DNA of 64,000 bases from Escherichia coli (GTDB taxonomy: Bacteria; Pseudomonadota; Gammaproteobacteria; Enterobacterales; Enterobacteriaceae): assembly GCF_003790525.1 (NCBI RefSeq), contig NZ_CP033635.1; one strand, given 5' to 3'. The notes under the pieces were generated by a model. The model saw only the letters and a program-made list of their open reading frames with translations. It was not told the DNA's origin and did not search any database. The position numbers and the translations under genes are program-made. How positions within the stretch are numbered: the first letter of the stretch is position 1; each line of letters begins with the position of its first letter. Of this stretch, positions 1-63,361 are shown piece by piece.

Positions 1-46
1 TCATCTCAAGATCGATCCAAATCAGGTTGTTTTCATTGGCACTCAT
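1..46 (-). CDS. orn: oligoribonuclease, first 15 codons only (gene runs off left edge)
   Basis: Reverse complement of 1-46 reads ATG AGT GCC AAT GAA AAC AAC CTG ATT TGG ATC GAT CTT GAG ATG = MSANENNLIWIDLEM, which I recognise as the Orn N-terminus. It is divergent from rsgA as in E. coli. Confidence 0.7.
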   Translation of the reverse strand, partial: MSANENNLIWIDLEM

Positions 47-140
47 GCTATTTTCCACCCATTCACAGTGACTATATTGATCCACAATTGCGTGTATCAT
101 AGATGTTTTGCCCATCAGGGGCGACCAGGAGTCTGTACGA

Positions 141-1193
141 TTGAGTAAAAATAAACTCTCCAAAGGCCAGCAGCGCCGCGTGAACGCCAATCACCAGCGT
201 CGTCTTAAAACGTCTAAGGAGAAGCCCGACTACGACGACAATCTGTTTGGCGAGCCTGATGAAGGTATCGTCATCAGCCGCTTTGGTATGCACGCTGATG
301 TGGAATCCGCAGATGGCGACGTTCACCGCTGCAATATTCGCCGTACCATCCGTTCGCTGGTGACCGGCGACCGCGTAGTCTGGCGTCCGGGTAAACCGGC
401 GGCGGAAGGCGTAAATGTCAAAGGGATCGTGGAAGCGGTGCATGAGCGCACTTCAGTGTTAACGCGCCCGGACTTCTACGATGGCGTGAAACCTATTGCC
501 GCCAACATCGACCAGATTGTCATTGTCTCCGCCATTTTGCCGGAGCTGTCGCTCAATATTATCGACCGTTACCTGGTGGCCTGCGAAACCTTGCAGATTG
601 AGCCGATTATTGTGCTCAACAAAATAGACCTGCTGGACGACGAAGGTATGAAGTTCGTCAACGAGCAGATGGACATCTACCGCAATATCGGTTATCGCGT
701 ATTGATGGTTTCCAGTCATACACAGGATGGGCTGAAACCGCTGGAAGAGGCGTTGACCGGGCGCATCAGCATTTTTGCCGGGCAGTCTGGCGTTGGCAAA
801 TCCAGCCTGCTGAACGCGTTGCTGGGGCTGCAAAAAGAGATCCTGACCAACGATGTCTCTGACAACTCGGGGCTTGGTCAGCACACCACGACCGCCGCTC
901 GGCTGTATCACTTCCCGCACGGCGGTGATGTGATTGACTCCCCAGGAGTGCGTGAGTTCGGCCTCTGGCACCTGGAGCCGGAACAAATCACTCAGGGCTT
1001 TGTCGAATTCCATGACTATTTAGGTCTGTGTAAATATCGCGATTGCAAACACGATACCGATCCGGGCTGCGCTATCCGGGAAGCGGTTGAGGAAGGGAAA
1101 ATCGCGGAAACCCGTTTCGAAAACTATCACCGTATTCTGGAAAGCATGGCGCAGGTAAAAACGCGTAAAAACTTTTCTGATACGGATGACTGA
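141..1193 (+). CDS. rsgA: ribosome small-subunit-dependent GTPase A (YjeQ)
   Basis: ORF 108-1193. The protein matches RsgA from (M)[22 protein letters not shown], giving 350 aa if started at the in-frame TTG at 141. It has a P-loop GQSGVGKSS and a C-terminal Zn cluster [14 protein letters not shown]. Confidence 0.9.
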
Positions 1194-1288
1194 CAATTAA
1201 GCTAACCGTCGTTAGAATCGTCCCCTTTTTTCAGGATCCGGCATGTAGGCCGGATCAGGAACGACAAAACAATGGCCTGGAGGCTACC

Positions 1289-2257
1289 TTGTTAAATTCA
1301 TTTAAACTTTCGCTACAGTACATTCTGCCGAAACTATGGCTTACTCGCCTGGCGGGTTGGGGCGCAAGCAAGCGGGCAGGATGGCTGACAAAACTGGTTA
1401 TCGATCTGTTCGTTAAATACTACAAGGTCGACATGAAAGAGGCGCAAAAGCCGGATACCGCCAGCTACCGCACCTTTAACGAATTCTTTGTCCGTCCGCT
1501 GCGTGACGAAGTACGCCCAATCGATACCGATCCGAATGTACTGGTTATGCCTGCCGATGGCGTTATCAGCCAGTTGGGTAAAATCGAAGAAGATAAAATC
1601 CTGCAAGCCAAAGGCCACAACTACAGCCTCGAAGCCCTGCTGGCAGGCAACTATCTGATGGCGGACCTGTTCCGCAACGGTACGTTTGTGACCACTTACC
1701 TCTCCCCGCGTGACTACCACCGCGTACACATGCCGTGCAACGGTATTCTGCGTGAGATGATCTACGTGCCGGGCGATCTCTTCTCCGTTAACCATCTCAC
1801 CGCTCAGAACGTGCCGAATCTGTTTGCCCGTAACGAACGCGTGATCTGCCTGTTCGATACCGAATTTGGCCCAATGGCGCAGATTCTGGTCGGGGCGACG
1901 ATTGTAGGCAGCATTGAGACGGTCTGGGCGGGCACCATTACGCCGCCGCGCGAAGGTATCATCAAGCGCTGGACCTGGCCTGCCGGGGAAAACGACGGTT
2001 CTGTGGCACTGCTGAAAGGCCAGGAAATGGGTCGCTTTAAACTCGGTTCCACCGTTATCAACCTGTTTGCACCGGGTAAAGTGAATCTGGTTGAGCAACT
2101 GGAAAGCCTGTCTGTCACGAAAATTGGCCAGCCGCTGGCAGTATCTACCGAAACCTTTGTTACGCCAGACGCTGAACCCGCCCCGCTTCCTGCTGAAGAG
2201 ATCGAAGCAGAACACGACGCCAGCCCATTGGTTGACGACAAAAAAGACCAGGTCTAA
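1289..2257 (+). CDS. psd: phosphatidylserine decarboxylase proenzyme
   Basis: 322-aa ORF with a TTG start, recognised as full-length Psd. It contains the LGST self-cleavage/pyruvoyl site ([11 protein letters not shown]). Confidence 0.95.
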
Positions 2258-2278
2258 TCCATCAAAGGAAACGCTGAC

Positions 2279-5200
2279 GTGCGCCTGATTATCACTTTTC
2301 TGATGGCCTGGTGCCTCAGTTGGGGGGCGTACGCCGCGACGGCCCCCGATAGCAAACAAATCTCACAAGAACTGGAGCAGGCAAAAGCGGCGAAACCCGC
2401 GCAACCGGAAGTCGTAGAGGCGCTCCAGTCTGCCTTAAATGCGCTTGAGGAACGGAAAGGTTCCCTTGAGCGCATCAAGCAATATCAAGAAGTCATTGAT
2501 AATTATCCGAAACTCTCCGCTACTCTGCGCGCGCAATTAAACAACATGCGTGACGAGCCGCGCAGCGTGTCACCGGGAATGTCTACCGACGCGCTGAATC
2601 AGGAAATTCTCCAGGTCAGCAGCCAGTTGCTGGATAAAAGCCGTCAGGCCCAGCAAGAGCAGGAACGCGCCCGCGAGATTGCCGATTCGCTGAATCAACT
2701 GCCGCAACAGCAAACCGATGCCCGCCGTCAGTTAAATGAAATCGAGCGCCGCCTGGGGACGCTTACCGGCAATTCCCCGCTCAATCAGGCACAAAATTTC
2801 GCGTTGCAGTCTGACTCCGCACGCCTGAAAGCGCTCGTCGATGAACTGGAACTGGCGCAGCTGTCCGCCAATAACCGCCAGGAATTAGCGCGCTTACGCT
2901 CAGAGCTGGCGGAAAAAGAGAGCCAGCAACTGGATGCATATTTGCAGGCCTTACGTAATCAGTTGAACAGCCAACGTCAGCTTGAGGCGGAGCGGGCGCT
3001 GGAAAGTACCGAATTACTGGCAGAAAACAGTGCCGATTTGCCGAAAGATATCGTCGCGCAATTCAAAATTAACCGCGAACTATCGGCAGCGCTGAATCAA
3101 CAGGCGCAGCGGATGGATCTCGTTGCCTCGCAACAGCGTCAGGCTGCCAGCCAGACGTTACAGGTCCGGCAGGCGTTGAATACGCTGCGTGAACAGTCGC
3201 AATGGCTGGGCTCGTCCAACCTGCTCGGCGAAGCGTTGCGGGCGCAGGTGGCACGGCTGCCGGAAATGCCAAAACCACAACAGCTTGATACCGAAATGGC
3301 GCAGTTGCGTGTGCAACGGTTACGTTATGAGGATCTGCTTAATAAACAGCCGCAGCTAAGGCAAATTCATCAGGCCGACGGTCAGCCGCTGACCGCCGAG
3401 CAAAACCGTATTCTGGAAGCACAGCTACGCACTCAGCGTGAGTTGCTGAACTCATTGTTGCAGGGTGGCGACACGCTACTACTGGAACTGACCAAGCTGA
3501 AAGTCTCCAACGGGCAACTGGAGGATGCGCTGAAAGAGGTGAATGAAGCGACGCACCGCTATCTGTTCTGGACCTCTGACGTGCGCCCGATGACCATCGC
3601 CTGGCCGCTGGAAATCGCCCAGGATCTGCGTCGTCTCATTTCGCTGGACACCTTCAGTCAGTTGGGCAAAGCCAGTGTGATGATGCTGACCAGTAAAGAG
3701 ACAATTTTACCGCTGTTTGGCGCGTTGATTCTGGTCGGTTGCAGTATTTACTCACGCCGCTATTTCACCCGTTTTCTTGAACGTTCGGCGGCGAAAGTCG
3801 GCAAAGTGACTCAGGATCACTTCTGGCTGACGTTACGCACTCTTTTCTGGTCGATTCTCGTCGCGTCACCGCTACCGGTGCTGTGGATGACGCTGGGTTA
3901 CGGCTTGCGCGAGGCGTGGCCTTATCCGCTGGCGGTCGCGATTGGCGATGGTGTAACGGCCACCGTGCCGCTGCTGTGGGTAGTGATGATTTGCGCTACC
4001 TTTGCCCGCCCGAACGGCTTGTTTATCGCTCATTTTGGCTGGCCGCGCGAACGCGTTTCCCGTGGGATGCGCTACTACCTGATGAGCATCGGGCTTATTG
4101 TGCCACTGATTATGGCGCTGATGATGTTCGATAACCTCGACGACCGCGAATTTTCCGGTTCGCTGGGACGGCTTTGCTTTATCCTCATTTGCGGTGCGCT
4201 GGCGGTGGTCACCCTCAGCCTGAAAAAGGCCGGGATCCCGCTGTATCTCAACAAAGAAGGCAGCGGCGACAACATTACCAACCATATGCTGTGGAACATG
4301 ATGATTAGCGCACCGCTGGTCGCTATTCTGGCGTCGGCGGTGGGTTATCTGGCAACGGCGCAGGCACTGTTAGCGAGGCTTGAAACCTCGGTTGCCATCT
4401 GGTTCCTGCTACTGGTGGTTTATCACGTTATCCGCCGCTGGATGCTGATCCAGCGCCGCAGGCTGGCGTTTGACCGGGCGAAGCATCGCCGGGCAGAGAT
4501 GTTAGCGCAACGTGCGCGTGGCGAAGAGGAAGCGCATCATCACAGTAGCCCGGAAGGAGCAATTGAAGTCGATGAAAGCGAAGTCGATCTCGATGCCATC
4601 AGTGCGCAATCCTTGCGGCTGGTGCGCTCAATTTTGATGTTGATCGCCCTGCTTTCGGTCATTGTGCTGTGGTCAGAAATCCATTCCGCTTTCGGCTTCC
4701 TCGAAAATATTTCGCTGTGGGATGTCACTTCCACGGTACAGGGCGTAGAAAGCCTGGAGCCGATTACCCTCGGTGCGGTACTGATTGCCATTCTGGTGTT
4801 TATCATCACCACGCAGCTGGTGCGCAACCTGCCCGCGCTGCTGGAACTGGCGATTCTGCAGCACCTGGATTTAACGCCGGGTACGGGCTACGCCATCACC
4901 ACCATCACCAAATATCTGCTGATGCTGATTGGCGGGCTGGTCGGCTTCTCGATGATTGGTATTGAGTGGTCGAAATTGCAGTGGCTGGTCGCCGCGCTCG
5001 GTGTTGGTCTCGGTTTTGGTTTGCAGGAAATTTTCGCCAACTTTATCTCTGGCCTGATTATCCTGTTCGAAAAACCGATTCGCATTGGCGATACGGTAAC
5101 GATCCGCGATCTTACCGGTAGTGTGACGAAAATTAACACCCGCGCCACCACCATCAGCGACTGGGACCGCAAAGAAATTATCGTGCCGAACAAGGCGTTT

Positions 5201-53457: not shown

Positions 53458-56400
53458 TTATACCGTTGCTGCGTCGGTCACAACACCCAGCTCTTCGACT
53501 ATCTTTTGTAGGCGGGCGATCTGCTCTATATCAGGGAACACACCGGTAACGCCTTCGTTGTGGATATGCGTAAAAGGCTGTTCAAAGAGCTGCCGCATTT
53601 CAATGGTGCCGTAATCGCGAATGTGGTTTTTCAGCAATGACAGGAAGCGCAATTGCTGGCTGGTCAGGCTGTTATCAGCGGCGAACTGAGCAAAGCGCAC
53701 TTCCACCGCGTCGCTGTCCATCCCGATGATGGTACGCAATAGTTTATCCAGGCTGGCGGTCGCCTGCGGGTAGAACTCTTTCAGTGCCCGGATATCAACG
53801 TTAGGGTTCTGGATCAGCACCAGTTTAGCCAGTTCATCCAGCTCGCTTTGCGTCACAGGCTCGCCGTTGCGGATTTTCTTCAGCACCGGATTTTGCTGGA
53901 ACAGCGGCTCCAGCGCTCCCTGCACCTGCTGGCGATAGAGTTTGAAGTCAATCGAGCGGATGTTGGTTTTGCGGTTTTCCGTCTGAATCAGGTTCGCATC
54001 TTCGGTAATATCCACCTGTATCGAACCAAATTTCGGCGTCGCGTCTTTTTCCATCAGGTGCATGATGCCGCGCAGATGAATGCGGATATCTTCCAGCTCT
54101 TCCAGGCTGGCCTGCTTCCACCAGCCTAAATCACGAAGCTGATTGATCCGCGGTCCTTGCTGTTGGACCTGCGCCAAATGCGGCGGCAGGCGCTCCACTT
54201 TTTCGACGATGACCGGCCAGAGCACATCCAGCTCTTCCGGGTTGGTATAACGGGCAGTTTGCGCCGCCAGAATATCCATATCAAAGCGCATAGCGTCGCT
54301 TTGCCCGCGCACGTCCAGCCACTGCATCAGCGGGGCCAGGACAGATAGCAAATCCTGCTGTGTTTTCGGGGAAAGCTGGCGCAGCACTTTTTCATCGCTG
54401 TACTGCGCTTTTTGATGCCACTTTTCCTGGACGGCAATCGACTTTTCATCCAGTGCATTGATTTGCTCGCGTAGCTGGTGAGCAACTAAATCCACCGCCT
54501 GTTTGTCGAATTTACGTTGCGCAGCGGCCCCCAGCATAACCCACGCTTCGAAGCGTTTTTGTGCAAGCGATTTTGTCGCTGTGACTTCGGCCTCTTCGGT
54601 ATGCAGTTCGTGATACTCAAAATTGCCCCAGTGATCGAAAATGCGGAATTTCTGTTTATCCAGAGGTTTGCCGTTATCGTCGTAACCGTACAACCCCGGA
54701 CAGAGGCGCGTACCACGGCCAATCATCTGCCAGAACTTCACTTTTGATTTGACCGGTTTGGCAAAGACCAGATTCACAATTTCCGGGACATCAATACCGG
54801 TATCGAGCATGTCAACGGAGATAGCGATGGTCAGCTCTTTGTTGGTGCTTTCATCCAGCCCTTTAAAATCATCAATCAGTTGCTCGGCGCGGGGATCGTA
54901 ATTGTCGATGACCTGGCAGAAGCGCCCGGCAAACTGCGGGTACATATCGTCGAATAATTCATTCAACAGCAGCGCGTGTTTGTGGTTACGGGCGAAAATG
55001 ATGGTTTTACCTGGCAACTGGCCGTCCCGATCTTTCAGGCCATTTTCCATCAGGTTACGCAGGATATAGCGGTTGGTGTCTTTGTTGTAGATCGCCTCAT
55101 CCAGCGCCTTGCCATCAAACTCCAGCGTATTGGGATCTATGCCTTGTTCTTCCAGCTCGCGGATTTGTGCGTCGCTTAATTTCTCCCGTTTGATGCCTTC
55201 GCGCAGGAATTCTGTGGTGTGCGTGACAACCTCATAGGGAACCAGATTGTTATCGGCGATGGCATCTTCCAGGCTGTAGTTGGCGGTAGGAATACGTCCT
55301 TCACAACCAAACAGGCCGAAAGTGGTTTTACTCACCATGTCAATCGGCGTGGCCGTCAGGCCAATCTGGAGGGCATCAAAATACTTAAACAGATCGCCGT
55401 AAACGTTGTAGATAGAGCGATGGGATTCATCGGCGATGATCAAATCGAAATAACCAACATCGAAATGGTCCATGATTTTCATCATACCAGGATAGGTGGC
55501 GATGTAGATCCTAGCATTCTGCCTGTCTGCTTTTTTCGATTTCCCGACCACATACAGCGGCTCATTGGTGAATTGATTAAAGGCATTCGCCGCCTGTTTA
55601 CGTAGTTCCTTGCGGTCGCAAAGAAACAGGACGCGTTTTACCCAGCGGGCATCAATCATTAGTTTGCTTAGCGCTATTGCCACGCGGGTTTTGCCTGTAC
55701 CCGTAGCCTGAACAATTAGCGATTGCCGGTATTTGTTGGTAAACCGCTCGCTGACACGGGCAATGGTTTCAAGCTGGTACAAACGTCCGGCAACGGCCTT
55801 ACCTTCGTTATCTTTTACGTGCGGCACACTGTTCAGCGGAAGACGGGTTTCACGCTGTTGAATAAGATATTGCAGGCTTTCCTTGCTGTAGAAGCCAAAC
55901 ACCCGACGCGGGGGATAACCATGAGTTTTATGGTCATCCCACAGCCAGATATCATAGCCGTTGGTGTAGAAGATGATCGGACGCTGGTCGTATTCTTTTT
56001 CCAGCCAGTCTGCATACAGCCGGGCCTGAATTCGTCCTTGCTCGGCATTGACGCTGGTTTTTTTTGCTTCCACCACCGCCAGCGGTTTGTGTGCCTCATC
56101 CCACAAGACATAGTCCGCATAACCGTCTCCGGTCGCGGTAGGTTGTTCTTTAACGGGATGTTCCTGCGTAACCTGATCGGTATTTTTAAGGCCTTCGCCT
56201 ACATTCCAGTCAGCAGCAAGCAGGCGAGAGTCAATCAGGCGACGGCGGGTTTCCGCTTCATCAATAGAGAGAATATCGGCAACATGCTGGTTACGCGCTC
56301 TGGCTTCATTCAGGCGTTGAGTGAGGTGTTCGGCCTTTTCCTGTTCTTGCTGTAGTGCGCGTTGCAGCGCCAGTTCGCGCTCACGGCTTTCATCCTGAGC

Positions 56401-56874
56401 CCTGATTGCATCTTCCAGACGTTTTTCATCTGCACGACCTGAAGATTGTGTTAATGGAGGGAGTGTAAATTTGGGGCAGTCATCAACATTACCGTGGGCG
56501 TAGCGAACATACAGCCAAATTCCCAACAAATACGCTTCTTTGAGCAGCCAGTAAGTATCTTTAGCTTTGATACGTCCGCCGTGCGCGGCACGGTTGCCAT
56601 GGATACGCAGCGCATCCATTTTCATGATGATGGCTTCCGGCATCATGCTGGTAAAGACATCAGCATTCATTAAATCGTAAAGATTAGCCTTAATACCTTC
56701 CGGCAACCGCTCCTGACGATACAACCAGCGCACCATCAATTCGGTGTAGTTGCGCAGCTTGACCAGACAACTTTCCGGATCGGAGTGAACATAGCGTTCC
56801 GCCATACACGCGAGTTCAGCCAGTTCCGGCCACTGGCTGCGCAACATTTCAAAATTGAGAGACTGCTCCATCAA
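53458..56874 (-). CDS. hsdR: type I restriction endonuclease/translocase subunit, long form
   Basis: 1138 aa. It has a PD-(D/E)xK-like nuclease core (GYADYVLWDEAHKPLAVVEAKK), SF2 helicase motif I VQATGTGKT and motif II IIADESHRS. An additional roughly 150-aa N-terminal helical domain and a long C-terminal extension are also present. Confidence 0.9.
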   Translation of the reverse strand: MMEQSLNFEMLRSQWPELAELACMAERYVHSDPESCLVKLRNYTELMVRWLYRQERLPEGIKANLYDLMNADVFTSMMPEAIIMKMDALRIHGNRAAHGGRIKAKDTYWLLKEAYLLGIWLYVRYAHGNVDDCPKFTLPPLTQSSGRADEKRLEDAIRAQDESRERELALQRALQQEQEKAEHLTQRLNEARARNQHVADILSIDEAETRRRLIDSRLLAADWNVGEGLKNTDQVTQEHPVKEQPTATGDGYADYVLWDEAHKPLAVVEAKKTSVNAEQGRIQARLYADWLEKEYDQRPIIFYTNGYDIWLWDDHKTHGYPPRRVFGFYSKESLQYLIQQRETRLPLNSVPHVKDNEGKAVAGRLYQLETIARVSERFTNKYRQSLIVQATGTGKTRVAIALSKLMIDARWVKRVLFLCDRKELRKQAANAFNQFTNEPLYVVGKSKKADRQNARIYIATYPGMMKIMDHFDVGYFDLIIADESHRSIYNVYGDLFKYFDALQIGLTATPIDMVSKTTFGLFGCEGRIPTANYSLEDAIADNNLVPYEVVTHTTEFLREGIKREKLSDAQIRELEEQGIDPNTLEFDGKALDEAIYNKDTNRYILRNLMENGLKDRDGQLPGKTIIFARNHKHALLLNELFDDMYPQFAGRFCQVIDNYDPRAEQLIDDFKGLDESTNKELTIAISVDMLDTGIDVPEIVNLVFAKPVKSKVKFWQMIGRGTRLCPGLYGYDDNGKPLDKQKFRIFDHWGNFEYHELHTEEAEVTATKSLAQKRFEAWVMLGAAAQRKFDKQAVDLVAHQLREQINALDEKSIAVQEKWHQKAQYSDEKVLRQLSPKTQQDLLSVLAPLMQWLDVRGQSDAMRFDMDILAAQTARYTNPEELDVLWPVIVEKVERLPPHLAQVQQQGPRINQLRDLGWWKQASLEELEDIRIHLRGIMHLMEKDATPKFGSIQVDITEDANLIQTENRKTNIRSIDFKLYRQQVQGALEPLFQQNPVLKKIRNGEPVTQSELDELAKLVLIQNPNVDIRALKEFYPQATASLDKLLRTIIGMDSDAVEVRFAQFAADNSLTSQQLRFLSLLKNHIRDYGTIEMRQLFEQPFTHIHNEGVTGVFPDIEQIARLQKIVEELGVVTDAATV

Positions 56875-57450: not shown

Positions 57451-58025
57451 ATGACCAATTCAGCACACCAGCGACTGGATATGGCGGGAAATGGTGGCCC
57501 GGGGGTTACAGGCAGTGAAACCATCGTCAGGGATGCTGTTGCCAAATGGCGTAAAGGCTGGAACCCACCAGTTACTACTGCCGCCAGACTTCCTTCAGTG
57601 TCCCGGGTAAGCCGCTGGTTGATGCCCTGGATAATAATCAGGGGTGAAGAAAATTATGCTTCCCGATTTATTAGTCTGATGTGTGAAAAAGAACCGGCGC
57701 TGAAAATAGCGCAGCAACTAGTACTTGAGTTCTACCGTATTCTGAAAACCCCAAATAAATCAAATCTAAGCAGTTGGTTCACTCGAGTCCACGAAAACGG
57801 TTCAGCAGAACTTCGGCGCGTGGCTGCGGGGATGGAAGCTGATGCTGCGGCTATATGTGAGGCAACCAGCAGCCGCTGGAGTAACGGTGTTGTCGAAGGT
57901 CATGTAAATCGCCTGAAGATGCTGAAACATCTGATGTATGGTCGAGCCGGATTTGAACTACTTAGGCAGAGGGTAATGAGTCCACTGGCATGAAAATCTC
58001 CACCTAGGTTGCGGAAGAGCCACTT
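57451..58025 (+). pseudogene. ISL3-family transposase C-terminal fragment plus terminal inverted repeat
   Basis: The 180-aa ORF ends ...RWSNGVVEGHVNRLKMLKHLMYGRAGFELLRQRVM, the conserved ISL3 transposase tail. ggttgcggaagagcc (reverse complement GGCTCTTCCGCAACC) follows at about 58007-58021 and looks like an ISL3-type terminal repeat. The N-terminal two-thirds of the transposase are absent. Confidence 0.6.
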
Positions 58026-58292: not shown

Positions 58293-58601
58293 TTATCGAT
58301 CTATTACGCGATCATAATATTCGATGATTTGCAGTGCAACAGCAGCAATTTGTACTGCTTCCTCCCTACTGGTACCGGCTGCTTTACCACCAAAACGATC
58401 ATGGAGGACAGCCTGATGAAATTCTCCCACCTCTTCTCCGAGAATCGCTCCCCAGATAAAAGGATCTTGATTACGGTCTGCCCCCCATTTGGCATCCTGC
58501 CGTTGCATTTCCGCTAGCACGTCAGACAGGGCTTTAGTGTCTTGATGTTTACCTTTCATGTTTCCCTTACGAATCCGTGATTTTAAGTCCATCATTAACA
58601 T
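58293..58601 (-). CDS. small MazG-like (all-alpha NTP pyrophosphohydrolase) protein
   Basis: 102-aa ORF, or 88 aa from the internal MKGKHQD. It has the EExxE-type metal site in WGAILGEEVGEFHQAV and a second acidic helix REEAVQIAAVALQIIEYYD, typical of MazG/dimeric-dUTPase-like folds. Confidence 0.6.
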   Translation of the reverse strand: MLMMDLKSRIRKGNMKGKHQDTKALSDVLAEMQRQDAKWGADRNQDPFIWGAILGEEVGEFHQAVLHDRFGGKAAGTSREEAVQIAAVALQIIEYYDRVIDR

Positions 58602-58702
58602 TTAATATGTGCAGAGTCCATTAATTCGCTACATCTCATTTTGTGAATGAGCGTTGAGTTTGCTATAAACGTAGCAACCAAGAAAAATAAAAGTGGATAA
58701 TT

Positions 58703-59029
58703 TTGTTCATTACCTTTCAAAGCAAGAAGTTAAGGACTATTTGCGAGAGTATGCATGAGGCAAATGAGATCTTTGGTGACAAAGTGGCATCAAGACTACG
58801 CTCGCGACTTTCCGATCTTTCCGTGACAGACAACATATTACTGTTGCCCGTAGGTTCGCCGGAGGTCTGCTTTGAGGATGGGGAAGAGTGTATTACAATT
58901 ACCATTCTCGGTGATGTAAAAATGGGATTTGTCTGTGGGAATACAGTTCAGCCCAAAAATCAAGATAATACAATTAACTGGTCCCGAGTTAGCCGGATAC
59001 GGTTAGTGTTCATAGGTGACGTGAAATGA
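58703..59029 (+). CDS. HigB-like / plasmid-maintenance killer-type toxin (RelE superfamily)
   Basis: 108 aa with a TTG start. The N-terminus (M)FITFQSKKLRTICE resembles the F-x-x-KKL-x-x-C opening of HigB-type killer proteins. The stop overlaps the downstream gene by 4 nt. Confidence 0.5.
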   Translation: MFITFQSKKLRTICESMHEANEIFGDKVASRLRSRLSDLSVTDNILLLPVGSPEVCFEDGEECITITILGDVKMGFVCGNTVQPKNQDNTINWSRVSRIRLVFIGDVK

Positions 59030-60108
59030 TAGTTACGCAGGACTTCCAGCCTGACTGGGTATCTCCACCCGGTGATACAATTATAGATCTAATGGATGAA
59101 CATGGGCTTTCTGGTGAAGAACTGAGTAAGAGGATTGGATTGTCTCTTATCCGGGGTCAGCAACTTCTTGAAGGAAAAATCCGACTCAATGAGTCTCTGG
59201 CTTGTAAGCTTGAGGAGTTATTCAACGTATCGACAGACTTCTGGATCAAGCGCGAAGTCGCTTATCGCCAGCAAATTGGATACCTCGAGAAAGTGAATAA
59301 TGATTGGCTCGAATCATTGCCTGTACGTGATATGATGGAGTTTGGTTGGATCCCCAAAACTACAACTCGGGAAAGTAAATTCCAGCACTGCCTATCGTTT
59401 TTCGGAATAAATTCCGTCAATGATTTTTTTTATAAAATTCAGTCAGATGCTCCTTTGGTCGCTTTTCGTAAATCTCTTAATCTGGCAACCGAGCCTATGG
59501 CCGATTTGGTGTGGCTGACTAGGGCTGCACAACTTACCTCAAACCAAAACTGTGCTGTATGGGATAAAGAGGGGCTGATAGCATTGTTGCCAGAACTGCG
59601 CAAAGCTACAAATGAACCCGACATGAGGATTTTTATCCCTTACATTCGCGACCTTCTCGCCACTGCTGGAGTTTCTCTCGTTGTGTTGCCAACGCCAAAG
59701 GGATGTCGGGCAAGTGGTGCTACCTGCTTTTTTACACCAGATCGCGCAACCCTAGTCATGAGTTTCCGTTATCTGACCGATGACCATTTTTGGTTTACGC
59801 TGTTTCATGAGATTGGGCATCTCATCTTGCATGAAGCTGTCCGAGTTCGCGTAGAAGGTAAAGATAGTCTTTCGTCGGAAGAGGAAAAGGAAGCAGATAA
59901 ATTTGCCGTTGATGTTCTTATCCCAGAAGAATACCGGCAGCAACTTAGTCGCTATGGTGTCCGGCATTGGAAAGAGATCATCCGGTTAGCTAGGAAAATG
60001 GGGGTATCCAAAGGGATCGTACTGGGATATTTGCAGCATGAAGGTAATATACCTTTTTCTCACCTTAATCGGTTTAAAGTGAGATTCCGTAAAGAAGATA
60101 TCGTCTGA
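59026..60108 (+). CDS. XRE-type HTH fused to an ImmA/IrrE (M78, COG2856) zinc metallopeptidase
   Basis: 360 aa with an N-terminal HTH region (GDTIIDLMDEHGLSGEELSKRIGLSLIRGQQLLEGK). The C-terminal part has the HEXXH motif in WFTLFHEIGHLILHE. Confidence 0.7.
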   Translation: MIVTQDFQPDWVSPPGDTIIDLMDEHGLSGEELSKRIGLSLIRGQQLLEGKIRLNESLACKLEELFNVSTDFWIKREVAYRQQIGYLEKVNNDWLESLPVRDMMEFGWIPKTTTRESKFQHCLSFFGINSVNDFFYKIQSDAPLVAFRKSLNLATEPMADLVWLTRAAQLTSNQNCAVWDKEGLIALLPELRKATNEPDMRIFIPYIRDLLATAGVSLVVLPTPKGCRASGATCFFTPDRATLVMSFRYLTDDHFWFTLFHEIGHLILHEAVRVRVEGKDSLSSEEEKEADKFAVDVLIPEEYRQQLSRYGVRHWKEIIRLARKMGVSKGIVLGYLQHEGNIPFSHLNRFKVRFRKEDIV

Positions 60109-60110
60109 TA

Positions 60111-61055
60111 TCAGCCGCCGAAATAGACATAACGGTCAGGTGATTTCTGCCAGTTGCACAACGCATCTTCAATAACCTGCATTCTCAAGTAGGGTGCAGG
60201 AATAATTGCCGCAAGGTCAGCTAGTTTTTCATTCAATACGTCTATTGTGTCACCAGCAGTCCGGCTATTGCTGAAAAGTAGCCGGCTTCCTTGAAGGGGC
60301 CCGGTTGCTCCATTCAGAAAAGCATGACCCGGCTCTACATCCAGAAGTCCCGTTTTCTTGAGCATAGTTAGGTAATCAAATTTTGCGGTTCGTCCAAATG
60401 AGATCACGGCATTTAGCCCTGAATACAATAGTTCGAATAAAGATTCTGGTGAAGATGAAAAGCTCTTGGCCTCTGCAAACCTAGCCTCATGACTGTGTGT
60501 AGCACCAATGAATCCGATGTAAGAGCGAAAAACCGCAGGTATTGAACGACGAGAGTGATATTTCTTCGTTTCATATTTCCGATGGTTACCATATTGTCTT
60601 AGGCTACTGTTAGCTGTCAACTCATCAGAGACGCTGGCGAACCATTGTTCAAAAGCAGCAAAGTCATCAGTTATCGTATCCCATGTCCACGTTTGTGTAC
60701 CGAGTCCACTGTATATATCTCGACACAAAATCCAGCCGGTTTTGTTACTCTTGCCGAAATGTGTGGCAAGGAAAACCAGCCAGCAGGCTTCATCGTAATT
60801 GTTGTCACGAAGATAAAGGCAGGCAGCGCGGAGAGGATCAAAAACATCAGAATTCGGCTCTTTTCGTAACGGAGTCATATAATCGGTCCGTAATGCAAGA
60901 GTTTCCACATAGCGTATACGACGTATACTGTCGATAATCTGACAGGCTAAAACATCAAAGCAGGCAGGAGAACTTAGGCCATTTAGGTTGTGTTCATTGC
61001 GGCTAAAATTTTGCAAATTACTAACCAGCTGACTGATTTGATTATGTCTTTTCAT
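60111..61055 (-). CDS. hypothetical 314-aa protein translationally coupled to the TS-like gene (possible aGPT-pyrophosphorylase-like / HhH-glycosylase-fold protein; unverified)
   Basis: The ATG overlaps the TS-like stop (ATGA). No classical motif is certain. The segments GNHRKYETKKYHSRR, FGRTAKFDYLTMLKKTGLL and NGATGPLQG remind me of the family annotated as alpha-glutamyl/putrescinyl thymine pyrophosphorylase clade 3. This rests on memory only. Confidence 0.35.
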   Translation of the reverse strand: MKRHNQISQLVSNLQNFSRNEHNLNGLSSPACFDVLACQIIDSIRRIRYVETLALRTDYMTPLRKEPNSDVFDPLRAACLYLRDNNYDEACWLVFLATHFGKSNKTGWILCRDIYSGLGTQTWTWDTITDDFAAFEQWFASVSDELTANSSLRQYGNHRKYETKKYHSRRSIPAVFRSYIGFIGATHSHEARFAEAKSFSSSPESLFELLYSGLNAVISFGRTAKFDYLTMLKKTGLLDVEPGHAFLNGATGPLQGSRLLFSNSRTAGDTIDVLNEKLADLAAIIPAPYLRMQVIEDALCNWQKSPDRYVYFGG

Positions 61056-62032
61056 TGTAGTCTTCCTTCAAAAATAAACCGATATTCCTGATTTTTCATT
61101 GCAGCCAACTCTTGGAAGGCTAGTCCTTTGTGGTTGGGTGTATGTGAACGTAACAAAAAGTGGATTTTTAATATACGCAATAAATCCTTCCAGTAGTCAT
61201 TCAAGGAAGTAGTGTCAATATCAAATTCCTTATTCTCTCGAAGAGCTTTTTCTGCCTCAAGCAGGGGTAAGATATCATCTAAGGAATGCATTTCAGGCAT
61301 CGATCCCATGACTGGTAGGGTGCTCATGAACCCCTCTTTCTGAAGAGCCTTCACTTTTTCTAAATCATTTTTATAGAGATGTAGGCTGGATACAAAGTGA
61401 TGATAGTGACCCAATTCGCATCCTATCAAGCGGGCAACTAATTCCTGTAGCATCGTGAACGCAAATACATCATGAGGCAGCCCCATAAAGGCATCGTTAG
61501 AACGCATACAAACAAATAGATGCAGCTCTTCACATCTGACAATAAACTGCATAGATATTGTACAAGGAATATCTACGTATTCTCGCTGTTCAGTTTTTGA
61601 GGGCACCAAGTCTGAGGCATCGAAAAGCTGTATTACTGCACGTCTGGTAGGTTTTTTCTCCTGCAAAAGGTTGATAACATTTTTTAGCTGATTATATAAA
61701 CCACGCATATTAAACAACCGTGGCCCGTAACCACCATGTATTTTCCCATCTGACTCAGCGGATTCAGCGTAACGTGGTATGAAGTGTTTTATAAACTCAA
61801 GATCGTTCTGAGCTGAGAGATACCACAGAAATTCACCTAAGCAACTAATTAGTTTTCCTCGGGATTCTGTTCTACTTATTCTTCGGCGGGGGTCGGTAAG
61901 GACAAGATAGGCACCAAGAATCTCTAGAGTTGATCCTTTTGTAGGATCGTTACTGAGTCCATCCGCTAGGATAGCTTGATGAACATCGTTTATCAGATCG
62001 TCAACACACTCAGCCGTTACCAAAAGAGTCAT
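61052..62032 (-). CDS. thymidylate synthase superfamily protein (ThyA / dNMP hydroxymethylase-like)
   Basis: 326 aa. It aligns by eye to the E. coli ThyA core. [14 protein letters not shown] matches [26 protein letters not shown] matches LAPCHAFFQFYV, retaining the catalytic Cys. [27 protein letters not shown] matches [35 protein letters not shown] matches GDTHLYSN. The N- and C-termini are divergent. Confidence 0.75.
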   Translation of the reverse strand: [326 protein letters not shown]

Positions 62033-62199
62033 TTTCTACCTTTTCCTGTATGGTAGTAACTAATCATTACCACCTGTATGGCATATAGTCAATATAGTAT
62101 CAATATCAACATGGTTCACAGGGTAAGTAAGACTTGATCTTACCCAGCAATAGTGGACACGCGGCTAAGTGAGTAAACTCTCAGTCAGAGGTGACTCAC

Positions 62200-62498
62200 A
62201 TGACAAAAACAGTATCAACCAGTAAAAACCCCGTAAACAGCATTCGCCTGAATTTCTCAGTGAAGCCCTGAAACTTGCTGAACGCATCGGTGTTGCTGCC
62301 GCAGCCCGTGAACTCAGCCTGTATGAATCACAGCTCTATGCGTGGCGCAGCAAACTGCAGCAACAAATGAGTTCGTCAGAGCGTGAAAGTGAACTGGCCG
62401 CTGAAAATGCCTGCCTGAAGCGGCAACTGGCGGAGCAGGCAGAGGAACTGGCTATCCTCCAAAAGGCCGCGACATACTTTGCGAATCGTCTGAAATGA
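62200..62498 (+). pseudogene. insE: IS3 orfA (insE) inactivated by a 1-nt deletion in an A-run
   Basis: It reads ATG ACA AAA ACA GTA TCA ACC AGT AAA AAC CCC GTA AAC ... TGA, with a stop after 23 codons. K-12 IS3 has AGT AAA AAA CCC CGT AAA CAG (one more A). The ORF track lists no orfA-sized ORF of 60 aa or more here, and the element is 1 nt shorter than 1258 bp. Confidence 0.75.
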
Positions 62499-63361
62499 AG
62501 TATGTCTTTATTGAAAAACATCAGGCTGAGTTCAGCATCAAAGCAATGTGCCGCGTGCTCCGGGTGGCCCGCAGCGGCTGGTATACGTGGTGTCAGCGGC
62601 GGACAAGGATAAGCACGCGTCAGCAGTTCCGCCAACACTGCGACAGCGTTGTCCTCGCGGCTTTTACCCGGTCAAAACAGCGTTACGGTGCCCCACGCCT
62701 GACGGATGAACTGCGTGCTCAGGGTTACCCCTTTAACGTAAAAACCGTGGCGGCAAGCCTGCGCCGTCAGGGACTGAGGGCAAAGGCCTCCCGGAAGTTC
62801 AGCCCGGTCAGCTACCGCGCACACGGCCTGCCTGTGTCAGAAAATCTGTTGGAGCAGGATTTTTACGCCAGTGGCCCGAACCAGAAGTGGGCAGGAGACA
62901 TCACGTACTTACGTACAGATGAAGGCTGGCTGTATCTGGCAGTGGTCATTGACCTGTGGTCACGTGCCGTTATTGGCTGGTCAATGTCGCCACGCATGAC
63001 GGCGCAACTGGCCTGCGATGCCCTGCAGATGGCGCTGTGGCGGCGTAAGAGGCCCCGGAACGTTATCGTTCACACGGACCGTGGAGGCCAGTACTGTTCA
63101 GCAGATTATCAGGCGCAACTGAAGCGGCATAATCTGCGTGGAAGTATGAGCGCAAAAGGTTGCTGCTACGATAATGCCTGCGTGGAAAGCTTCTTTCATT
63201 CGCTGAAAGTGGAATGTATCCATGGAGAACACTTTATCAGCCGGGAAATAATGCGGGCAACGGTGTTTAATTATATCGAATGTGATTACAATCGGTGGCG
63301 GCGGCACAGTTGGTGTGGCGGCCTCAGTCCGGAACAATTTGAAAACAAGAACCTCGCTTAG
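62495..63361 (+). CDS. insF: IS3 transposase orfB (DDE/rve domain)
   Basis: 288 aa beginning [32 protein letters not shown]. It contains the motifs [16 protein letters not shown] and [11 protein letters not shown]. Confidence 0.93.

Follow-up and report, generated by a model that had tools for sequence, protein, structure and literature searches.

The 64,000-nucleotide stretch of Escherichia coli DNA analysed here (contig NZ_CP033635.1 of assembly GCF_003790525.1), which we refer to as the window, carries at positions 58703–60108 two overlapping genes that we call A and B. A first-pass annotation, made from the sequence alone, had described them as a HigB-like toxin gene translationally coupled to a gene for an XRE-type helix-turn-helix (HTH) domain fused to a metallopeptidase. 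Both open reading frames (ORFs) are indeed present, and the 4-nt overlap between them, gtgaaATGAtag (ATGA), bears out the coupling. Very probably, however, A and B do not form a two-gene unit but are part of a larger conserved cassette, whose remaining genes form an operon of two enzymes convergent with B. The four genes in the window are as follows.

58703..59029, plus strand: gene A, encoding a 108-aa HigB-fold protein (ORF with a TTG start; supported by a fold model and by homologues located 5' of B)
59026..60108, plus strand: gene B, encoding a 360-aa protein with an HTH domain (aa ~15-85) and an M78 peptidase domain (aa ~210-340) (ORF with an ATG start; supported by Pfam, PADLOC and fold)
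60111..61055, minus strand: gene for aGPT-Pplase3, a 314-aa member of the amino-acid:DNA-transferase family, clade 3 (Pfam PF18746, E 4.8e-90)
61052..62032, minus strand: gene for a 326-aa thymidylate-synthase-fold enzyme, closest to MilA (Pfam PF00303)

More than 1,400 full-length homologues of B (~360 aa) were found. Our main set of loci consists of the best 80 of at least 513 confirmed B relatives, with one genome per species scanned. These loci were picked solely on likeness to B and come from Proteobacteria, Acidobacteriota, Bacteroidota, Chloroflexota, Planctomycetota, Verrucomicrobiota and other phyla. All 80 contain an aGPT-Pplase3 homologue, which in most cases is the nearest gene after B and lies on the opposite strand, and clustering of the flanking ORFs identified a thymidylate-synthase-like gene in 77. 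The two halves meet tail to tail: the gap between the stop codons of B and aGPT-Pplase3 has a median of 3 nt, being at most 5 nt in 52 loci and at most 30 nt in 76, with several pairs overlapping, and in the window a mere 2 nt separates the stop codons (60106-60113). Because no terminator fits between the two genes, their transcription units must overlap at the 3' ends in an antisense arrangement. The same linkage is seen from the other side. Among 23 IMG/VR loci picked solely on likeness to aGPT-Pplase3 (35–83% identity), a convergent B is found in all 22 that reach past the aGPT-Pplase3 gene, and the synthase-like gene is present in all 23. The linkage of A–B to aGPT-Pplase3 holds at 35–94% identity and across phyla, and a conserved same-strand third gene 3' of B was found in none of the 80 loci.

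A B copy on a Rathayibacter plasmid (L107, 37% identity) keeps the cassette layout, with B and aGPT-Pplase3 overlapping by 29 nt; this cassette (positions 1-3503) adjoins genes for a DNA cytosine methyltransferase and an HNH endonuclease. The layout is absent from B homologues at about 30–32% identity, namely the Streptomyces plasmid, Microscilla plasmid and Achromobacter phage copies, the latter two of which have a same-strand third gene. The A–B module of the Streptomyces plasmid (L108, 1565-3220; 32% identity) has no enzyme operon and lies beside ThiF-family, multiubiquitin and DUF6527 genes.

Beyond the cassette, the genes are unrelated between loci: a Pfam scan of 130 flanking ORFs returned 108 families. 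The cassette moves horizontally as a unit of four or five genes. The flanking genes also bear on the alternative that A–B is an ImmR/ImmA-, CapH/CapP- or DdrO/IrrE-type regulator of a prophage, an integrative and conjugative element or a stress regulon, located here by chance; the first-pass annotation had itself raised a prophage or integrative-element regulator of the ImmR/ImmA type. The combination of an M78 peptidase with an XRE-type HTH is a hallmark of such switches, the island that holds the cassette contains an integrase fragment and insertion sequence (IS) elements, and a few homologues occur on phage or IMG/VR contigs. However, the repressor and the protease are fused here, the flanking genes are heterogeneous with only 3 of the 130 encoded proteins matching the phage-integrase family, only four phage records contain a full-length relative, and the conserved partner is an enzyme operon rather than any mobile-element module. 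Based on the flanking gene content and the rarity in phages, we rejected this explanation, which we regard as very unlikely.

The product of gene B, labelled “XRE family transcriptional regulator” in RefSeq, combines an antitoxin-type HTH with an intact HEXXH peptidase, as the first-pass annotation had stated, and Pfam, HigA profile and fold matches all agree on this point. Pfam locates HTH_3 at aa 21-73 and Peptidase_M78 (PF06114) at aa 237-332 (E 9.9e-11). The sequence FHEIGHLILHE occupies residues 260-270, with the HEXXH motif encoded at nt 59806-59820. Among 73 sequences, no variation is seen at H261, E262, H265 and E287, and E289 is nearly invariant; the third zinc ligand could be either E287 or E289. 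When compared to the Protein Data Bank (PDB), the B profile matches the HigA entries 2icp, 4mcx and 6chv at E about 1e-9, and CapP weakly. In Foldseek comparisons of a structural model (predicted local distance difference test score, pLDDT, 87.6), the first ~75 residues superpose on HigA from Proteus vulgaris with a root-mean-square deviation of 1.4 A and the C-terminal half superposes on CapP, IrrE and PprI; C.BclI, a controller protein of a restriction–modification (R-M) system, is also among the fold matches.

The only PADLOC model to match B over nearly its full length is PD-Lambda-2_B (E 8.7e-30, 102 bits; B aa 15-341 against model positions 60-378 of 402), whereas the RmrA, CapP and Lit models chiefly cover the HEXXH core. 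This distinction matters for RosmerTA, a pairing of an RmrT toxin with an RmrA HTH/peptidase antitoxin, to which the two genes had tentatively been likened. Although RmrA models match B with E-values down to 4e-10, the best of them reaches 37 bits over ~50-120 of the 360 residues, mainly around the HEXXH motif, compared to 102 bits for PD-Lambda-2_B, and no RmrT model matches A. RosmerTA, which was rejected at the level of sequence models, is the least probable of the explanations considered here.

PD-lambda-2 from E. coli ECOR42 (Vassallo et al. 2022) is a validated three-gene system with a HigB-like A and an HTH-peptidase B, in which B alone is toxic and A rescues, and in which a same-strand gene C is needed for defence (PMC9519451). 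The toxicity of B, its rescue by A and protection against lambda-vir are known for the ECOR42 system only. No mechanistic work on it after 2022 was found in the literature. Our comparison is based on the PADLOC models for A, B and C and on two PD-lambda-2-like loci (L082 and L109) rather than on the ECOR42 sequences. As in PD-lambda-2, a HigB-like small gene lies directly 5' of a HigA-HTH/M78 fusion in E. coli accessory DNA. Unlike PD-lambda-2, the cassette has no same-strand gene C after B, the conserved partner instead being the convergent enzyme operon; furthermore, A does not match the PD-Lambda-2_A model, and B reaches 102 bits with PD-Lambda-2_B, as opposed to 135–166 bits for phage homologues. 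By analogy, the A–B module is probably common to both systems and probably works in the same way at the level of A and B.

Gene A is a real gene. An ORF of ~105-115 aa terminating at the start of B is present in all 80 loci, and 79 of these ORFs were detected by phmmer with the 108-aa protein of the window as query. Since a direct search with gene A alone yielded only 11 close relatives, its homologues were sought via the B loci. A profile of the family retrieves 789 homologues from the protein collection, some of which are named “killer protein” or “HigB-1” by the source databases. The ratio of nonsynonymous to synonymous substitution rates (dN/dS) of gene A is 0.14–0.27 among enteric copies, which together with the homologues in 79 of 80 loci rules out a chance ORF. 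The TTG start is kept in the four close relatives that could be aligned across it, and the N-terminal strand encoded after it is conserved throughout the family. RefSeq (PGAP) leaves gene A unannotated in E. coli NZ_CP029180, and the top 20 matching genomes have feature lists that look alike; the Citrobacter and Serratia copies carry the misleading label “killer suppression protein HigA”. Between the window and L003, dS is 0.35 for gene A and 1.12 for gene B, i.e., about one third as high for A, a difference that could stem from recombination or from an additional constraint acting on the nucleotide sequence of A.

The AlphaFold model of the gene A product, calculated from an 89-sequence alignment, confidently predicts the RelE/HigB fold (pLDDT 93.5) that the first-pass annotation had proposed. 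The best PDB match found by Foldseek is P. vulgaris HigB (template modelling score 0.63/0.72, probability 1.00), followed by YoeB, RelE, ParE and YafQ. At the level of sequence, the protein has no match at E<0.1 in Pfam, PADLOC or NCBIfam; the Pfam family HigB-like_toxin does not match it and gives a weak match in only 2 of 46 A-family members, and the A-family profile finds only GraT among PDB sequences, at a non-significant E of 0.78. Using hhalign, the A profile could be aligned to a single P. vulgaris HigB sequence, in consistent register over HigB residues 4-77 but with only 2% probability, and this alignment served residue mapping only. Compared to HigB, the A family carries ~20 extra residues ahead of the last strand and ends in ...RIKILRI, with window A ending in ...RLVFIGDVK.

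The catalytic residues of P. vulgaris HigB are His54 and Asp90-Tyr91-His92, and DeltaH92 and Y91A are inactivating changes; HigB variants with these two names appear in the PDB titles of the fold matches. In the profile alignment, no counterpart of Asp90-Tyr91-His92 is found at the C-terminus of the cassette-linked A clade, and the window residue aligned to His54 is Glu54. Indeed, Glu54, Gly79 and Asn80 of the window copy replace Arg (67 of 89 sequences), Asn (84 of 89) and His (84 of 89), respectively. As the A homologue on the Microscilla plasmid, which has a three-gene PD-lambda-2-like layout, retains a ...VDYH end, the loss of Asp-Tyr-His is a derived trait of the cassette-linked clade. 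The absence of this motif and the replacement of three near-invariant polar residues of the family make RNase toxicity doubtful, and the gene A product is, judging from its residues, probably not a working HigB RNase.

These observations also bear on the possibility that A–B is a free-standing type II HigBA-like toxin–antitoxin (TA) or abortive-infection pair, in which A would be an mRNA-cleaving toxin, B an antitoxin-repressor, the peptidase a proteolytic trigger, and the enzymes mere cargo. There is much in the locus that resembles HigBA systems, such as those of P. vulgaris and E. coli and GraTA of Pseudomonas putida. HigB and HigA provide the best folds for A and for the HTH-bearing N-terminus of B, the order is toxin-first as in P. 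vulgaris higBA, and the genes overlap, here with ATGA coupling. Some A homologues are named killer protein or HigB-1, most members of the family keep the Asn-His and the Arg residues of the sheet, and at identities below ~32% the A–B module occurs without the enzymes. On the other hand, B has an extra ~270-aa peptidase region, and A has the ~20-residue insertion but neither the catalytic C-terminal residues of HigB nor a match to the Pfam HigB-like_toxin family, with R54, N79 and H80 also lost in the window copy. The toxicity of PD-lambda-2 is reversed, the fusion being toxic and A rescuing, and the linkage to aGPT-Pplase3 (80 of 80 and 22 of 22 loci) is far tighter than hitch-hiking of enzymes with a mobile TA pair would give. 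We therefore consider a free-standing TA pair improbable. The toxin and antitoxin roles originally given to A and B are not supported, and what remains of the proposed TA-like module is its HigB/HigA ancestry, not its existence as a free-standing two-gene unit. Based on the profiles and models, the A–B pair descends from a HigB–HigA module whose HigA gained a C-terminal M78 peptidase.

The synthase-like gene and the aGPT-Pplase3 gene overlap by 4 nt and form one operon. Although annotated as a thymidylate synthase, the product of the former matches the cytidine monophosphate (CMP) 5-hydroxymethylase MilA (PDB 5b6d/5jnh) over its full length at E 1.6e-41, compared to a best E of 1.4e-18 for thymidylate synthases and ~1e-11 for E. 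coli-type ThyA. The protein has an invariant catalytic Cys157 and, at the site equivalent to ThyA Asn177, an Asp188 with at least 95% conservation. An Asp at this position marks cytosine-specific enzymes such as T4 deoxycytidine monophosphate (dCMP) hydroxymethylase. The much closer relationship to MilA and the Asp at the Asn177 position suggest that the protein is probably not a deoxythymidine monophosphate synthase, and we predict that it is probably a MilA-like cytosine-nucleotide C5-hydroxymethylase. The aGPT-Pplase clades were reportedly defined by Iyer et al. in 2013, and we know of no biochemical characterisation of clade 3. In aGPT-Pplase3, E296, D297 and C300 are all at least 95% conserved and seem to recall the essential Cys/Glu pair of clade-2 enzymes (PMC8989533). 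From these residues, both partner enzymes look active.

Side-by-side genes for a synthase-fold hydroxymethylase and an aGPT-Pplase-family protein are reminiscent of phage clusters for thymidine hypermodification, which use a deoxyuridine monophosphate hydroxymethylase, a 5-hydroxymethyldeoxyuridine (5-hmdU) DNA kinase and an aGPT-Pplase/AADT (PMC8989533). Unlike those clusters, the cassette is found in bacteria and has a TA-like module coupled to it, its aGPT-Pplase is from clade 3, its synthase-like enzyme is of the cytosine type (Asp188) and nearest to MilA, and a Pfam scan of the window cassette found no kinase gene. The enzymes might alternatively mark host pyrimidines, in which case the cassette would serve epigenetic modification of self DNA, with A–B acting as a controller or addiction module as in R-M systems. 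The aGPT-Pplase family acts on phage DNA bases (PMC8989533), R-M controller HTHs resemble that of B, as illustrated by C.BclI, and the Rathayibacter cassette with its neighbouring methyltransferase and endonuclease would suit such a role. However, the cassette contains neither a 5-hmdU DNA kinase nor any other P-loop kinase, no conserved nuclease that could read the mark is found among the flanking genes, and the product of a nucleotide-level hydroxymethylase could enter host DNA only through a dedicated kinase and polymerase route. DefensePredictor, furthermore, predicts defence rather than housekeeping (PMC13092281). Overall, marking of self DNA appears an unlikely purpose for the cassette.

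The machine-learning study DefensePredictor (Science 2026, PMC13092281) lists WP_000174035.1, which is exactly the synthase-like protein of the window, as a “Predicted novel defense gene” with a log-odds of 7.63 in its Table S10. It also highlights a predicted, unvalidated system with an aGPT-Pplase and an HTH protein, not confirmed to have exactly the gene set found here. In the same study, the validated system DS-4 (“NTTI”) comprises a thymidylate synthase, a deoxynucleoside monophosphate kinase, a 5-hmdU kinase, a TIR protein and a hypothetical protein (PMC13092281). The cassette resembles DS-4 in being bacterial and in combining a synthase-fold protein with hypermodification-type enzymes, but DS-4 is validated and the present locus predicted.

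The best explanation of these findings, to which we give roughly even chances, is that A–B constitutes the control half of a mobile cassette and that the MilA-like hydroxymethylase and aGPT-Pplase3 constitute the other half. We lean somewhat more firmly towards the cassette being an anti-phage system. An association with defence, as the first-pass annotation had suggested, is plausible considering the match of B to PD-Lambda-2_B, the DefensePredictor listing, a type I R-M system upstream and, in the matching genome, a dGTPase-family gene downstream. What is established is the HigBA ancestry, the intact M78 site, the intact-looking enzyme sites, the invariant linkage and the tail-to-tail abutment of the two halves; the A–B interaction, the trigger, the direction of regulation, the chemistry and the defence phenotype are all matters that we infer. 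The best functional analogy for a damage- or phage-triggered switch of an effector operon is offered by CapH/CapP, DdrO/IrrE(PprI) and ImmR/ImmA, which likewise combine an XRE-type HTH with an M78 zinc peptidase having an intact HEXXH motif and a downstream Glu. In each of them, repressor and protease are two proteins, the former being cleaved by the latter, whereas here the two are fused, a HigB-fold partner is present, and the module is convergent with its presumed target operon. No separate conserved XRE gene was seen near the cassette in the flanking-gene scan.

A specific switch-and-effector scheme can be outlined, although it is tentative and may well be wrong. B would bind DNA via its HigA-type HTH and hold expression low, and A, a HigB fold minus the catalytic C-terminus, would bind and restrain B in the way that PD-lambda-2A neutralises PD-lambda-2B; a role for A as a bound partner or inhibitor of B is suggested by the PD-lambda-2 precedent and by the loss of catalytic residues. 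A cue arising from phage or from DNA damage would then activate the peptidase or release B from A, and the switch would unleash the enzymes, the toxicity of B, or both. Phage replication would be blocked by the products that the enzymes make from cytosine nucleotides or from pyrimidines in DNA. Always-on enzymes would harm the host, which would explain the need for a dedicated switch. A more speculative and somewhat less probable extension is a new kind of inducible immunity, in which a HigBA-derived protease switch gates a host copy of the phage hydroxymethyl-cytosine route. In enteric cassettes, a MazG-like pyrophosphatase might feed dCMP to the MilA-like enzyme, and aGPT-Pplase3 might process the product or DNA, so that upon infection the cytosine nucleotide pool would be irreversibly drained or corrupted, or replicating phage DNA tagged. 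The HigB-fold protein would be an inhibitor or sensor without catalytic activity, not a toxin, and the conserved 0-5-nt junction could give rise to mutual antisense control of the two operons.

The regulatory part of the proposal can be compared to the remaining features of the locus, which are listed below.

58293..58601, minus strand: MazG-like gene, divergent from A (RefSeq annotation and name; RefSeq start 58559)
58635-58651 and 58660-58677: two palindromes with 6-bp arms, CTCATTttgtgAATGAG and TTGCTAtaaacgTAGCAA, respectively (sequence inspection)
62063..62092, minus strand: sigma-70-like site TTGACT-18-AATGAT, 5' of the synthase-like gene (consensus scan only)
53458-56874: hsdR, the R subunit gene of a type I R-M system, upstream of the cassette (PADLOC REase_I, E 1.7e-273)
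57451-57993: ISL3 transposase fragment, between hsdR and the MazG-like gene
~62136-63361: IS3 copy, with one end ~100 nt upstream of the start codon of the synthase-like gene

The two palindromes sit in the 101-nt promoter region common to the divergent MazG-like gene and gene A, and are candidate operators for the HTH of B. The second is kept in four close relatives, the first in only some. A repeat search of the promoter regions returned no inverted repeat of 8 bases or more. The sigma-70-like site is flanked by a direct repeat of CCATACAGG.

Several observations weigh against a scheme in which A–B controls the enzymes for defence. The promoter of A and that of the synthase operon share no 7-mer on either strand, and as no operator motif common to both was found, there is no support for B repressing the enzymes directly. 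Since no related motif was found upstream of the synthase operon, control may instead act post-transcriptionally, via convergent transcription, or on the proteins themselves. Regulators in which the HTH and the M78 peptidase are encoded by separate genes, such as CapH/CapP, have a divergent layout, as opposed to the convergent layout found here. The A family retains near-invariant Asn-His and basic residues, and most of its members may thus possess RNase activity, while the PADLOC PD-Lambda-2_A model matches neither window A nor any of the 46 family members at E<=1. In the window itself, the IS3 copy near the synthase operon might alter expression of the operon. Finally, the closest neighbours of the cassette are for the most part not defence genes.

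If the proposed coupling is correct, what is new is a HigBA-peptidase module joined to a cytosine-hydroxymethylase/aGPT-Pplase3 operon in a locus that is predicted to be defensive. Such a cassette brings together two hitherto separate fields of study, one on TA-derived protease switches, as in PD-lambda-2 and CapH/CapP, and one on how bacteria employ phage-type enzymes that modify bases or nucleotides. Clade-3 aGPT-Pplases would gain a first biological context, and the HigB fold would be put to the test as a non-catalytic regulator. The analysis also draws attention to gene A as a conserved gene that RefSeq leaves out in E. coli. The region is present in 253 of 5,426 complete E. coli genomes, in all of them on the chromosome, and in 248 of the 5,426 at 99–100% identity, so that it provides a compact, natural four-gene example open to direct experiment.

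Additional genes accompany the cassette in some lineages. The MazG-like gene occurs in enteric cassettes only (L002-L005, L009, L084-L086 and L090) and is possibly a lineage-specific accessory; it matches nothing in Pfam or NCBIfam, and its RefSeq name is thus unconfirmed. About 50 of the 80 loci, but not the window, have a gene of ~266 aa between aGPT-Pplase3 and the synthase-like gene (e.g., L013:3497-4294, minus strand). Its product is characterised by the motifs GLNPSNxEF, CHLDLIPYAT and GFNHNIQSS, and has no Pfam family, no credible PDB sequence match and no P-loop. A DUF4031 gene (~100 aa) is found in 12 of the 80 loci, for example at L011:7873-8175. In the matching genome L001, a dGTPase-family gene follows, and the resistance genes floR, tet(A), sul2 and aph lie farther on.

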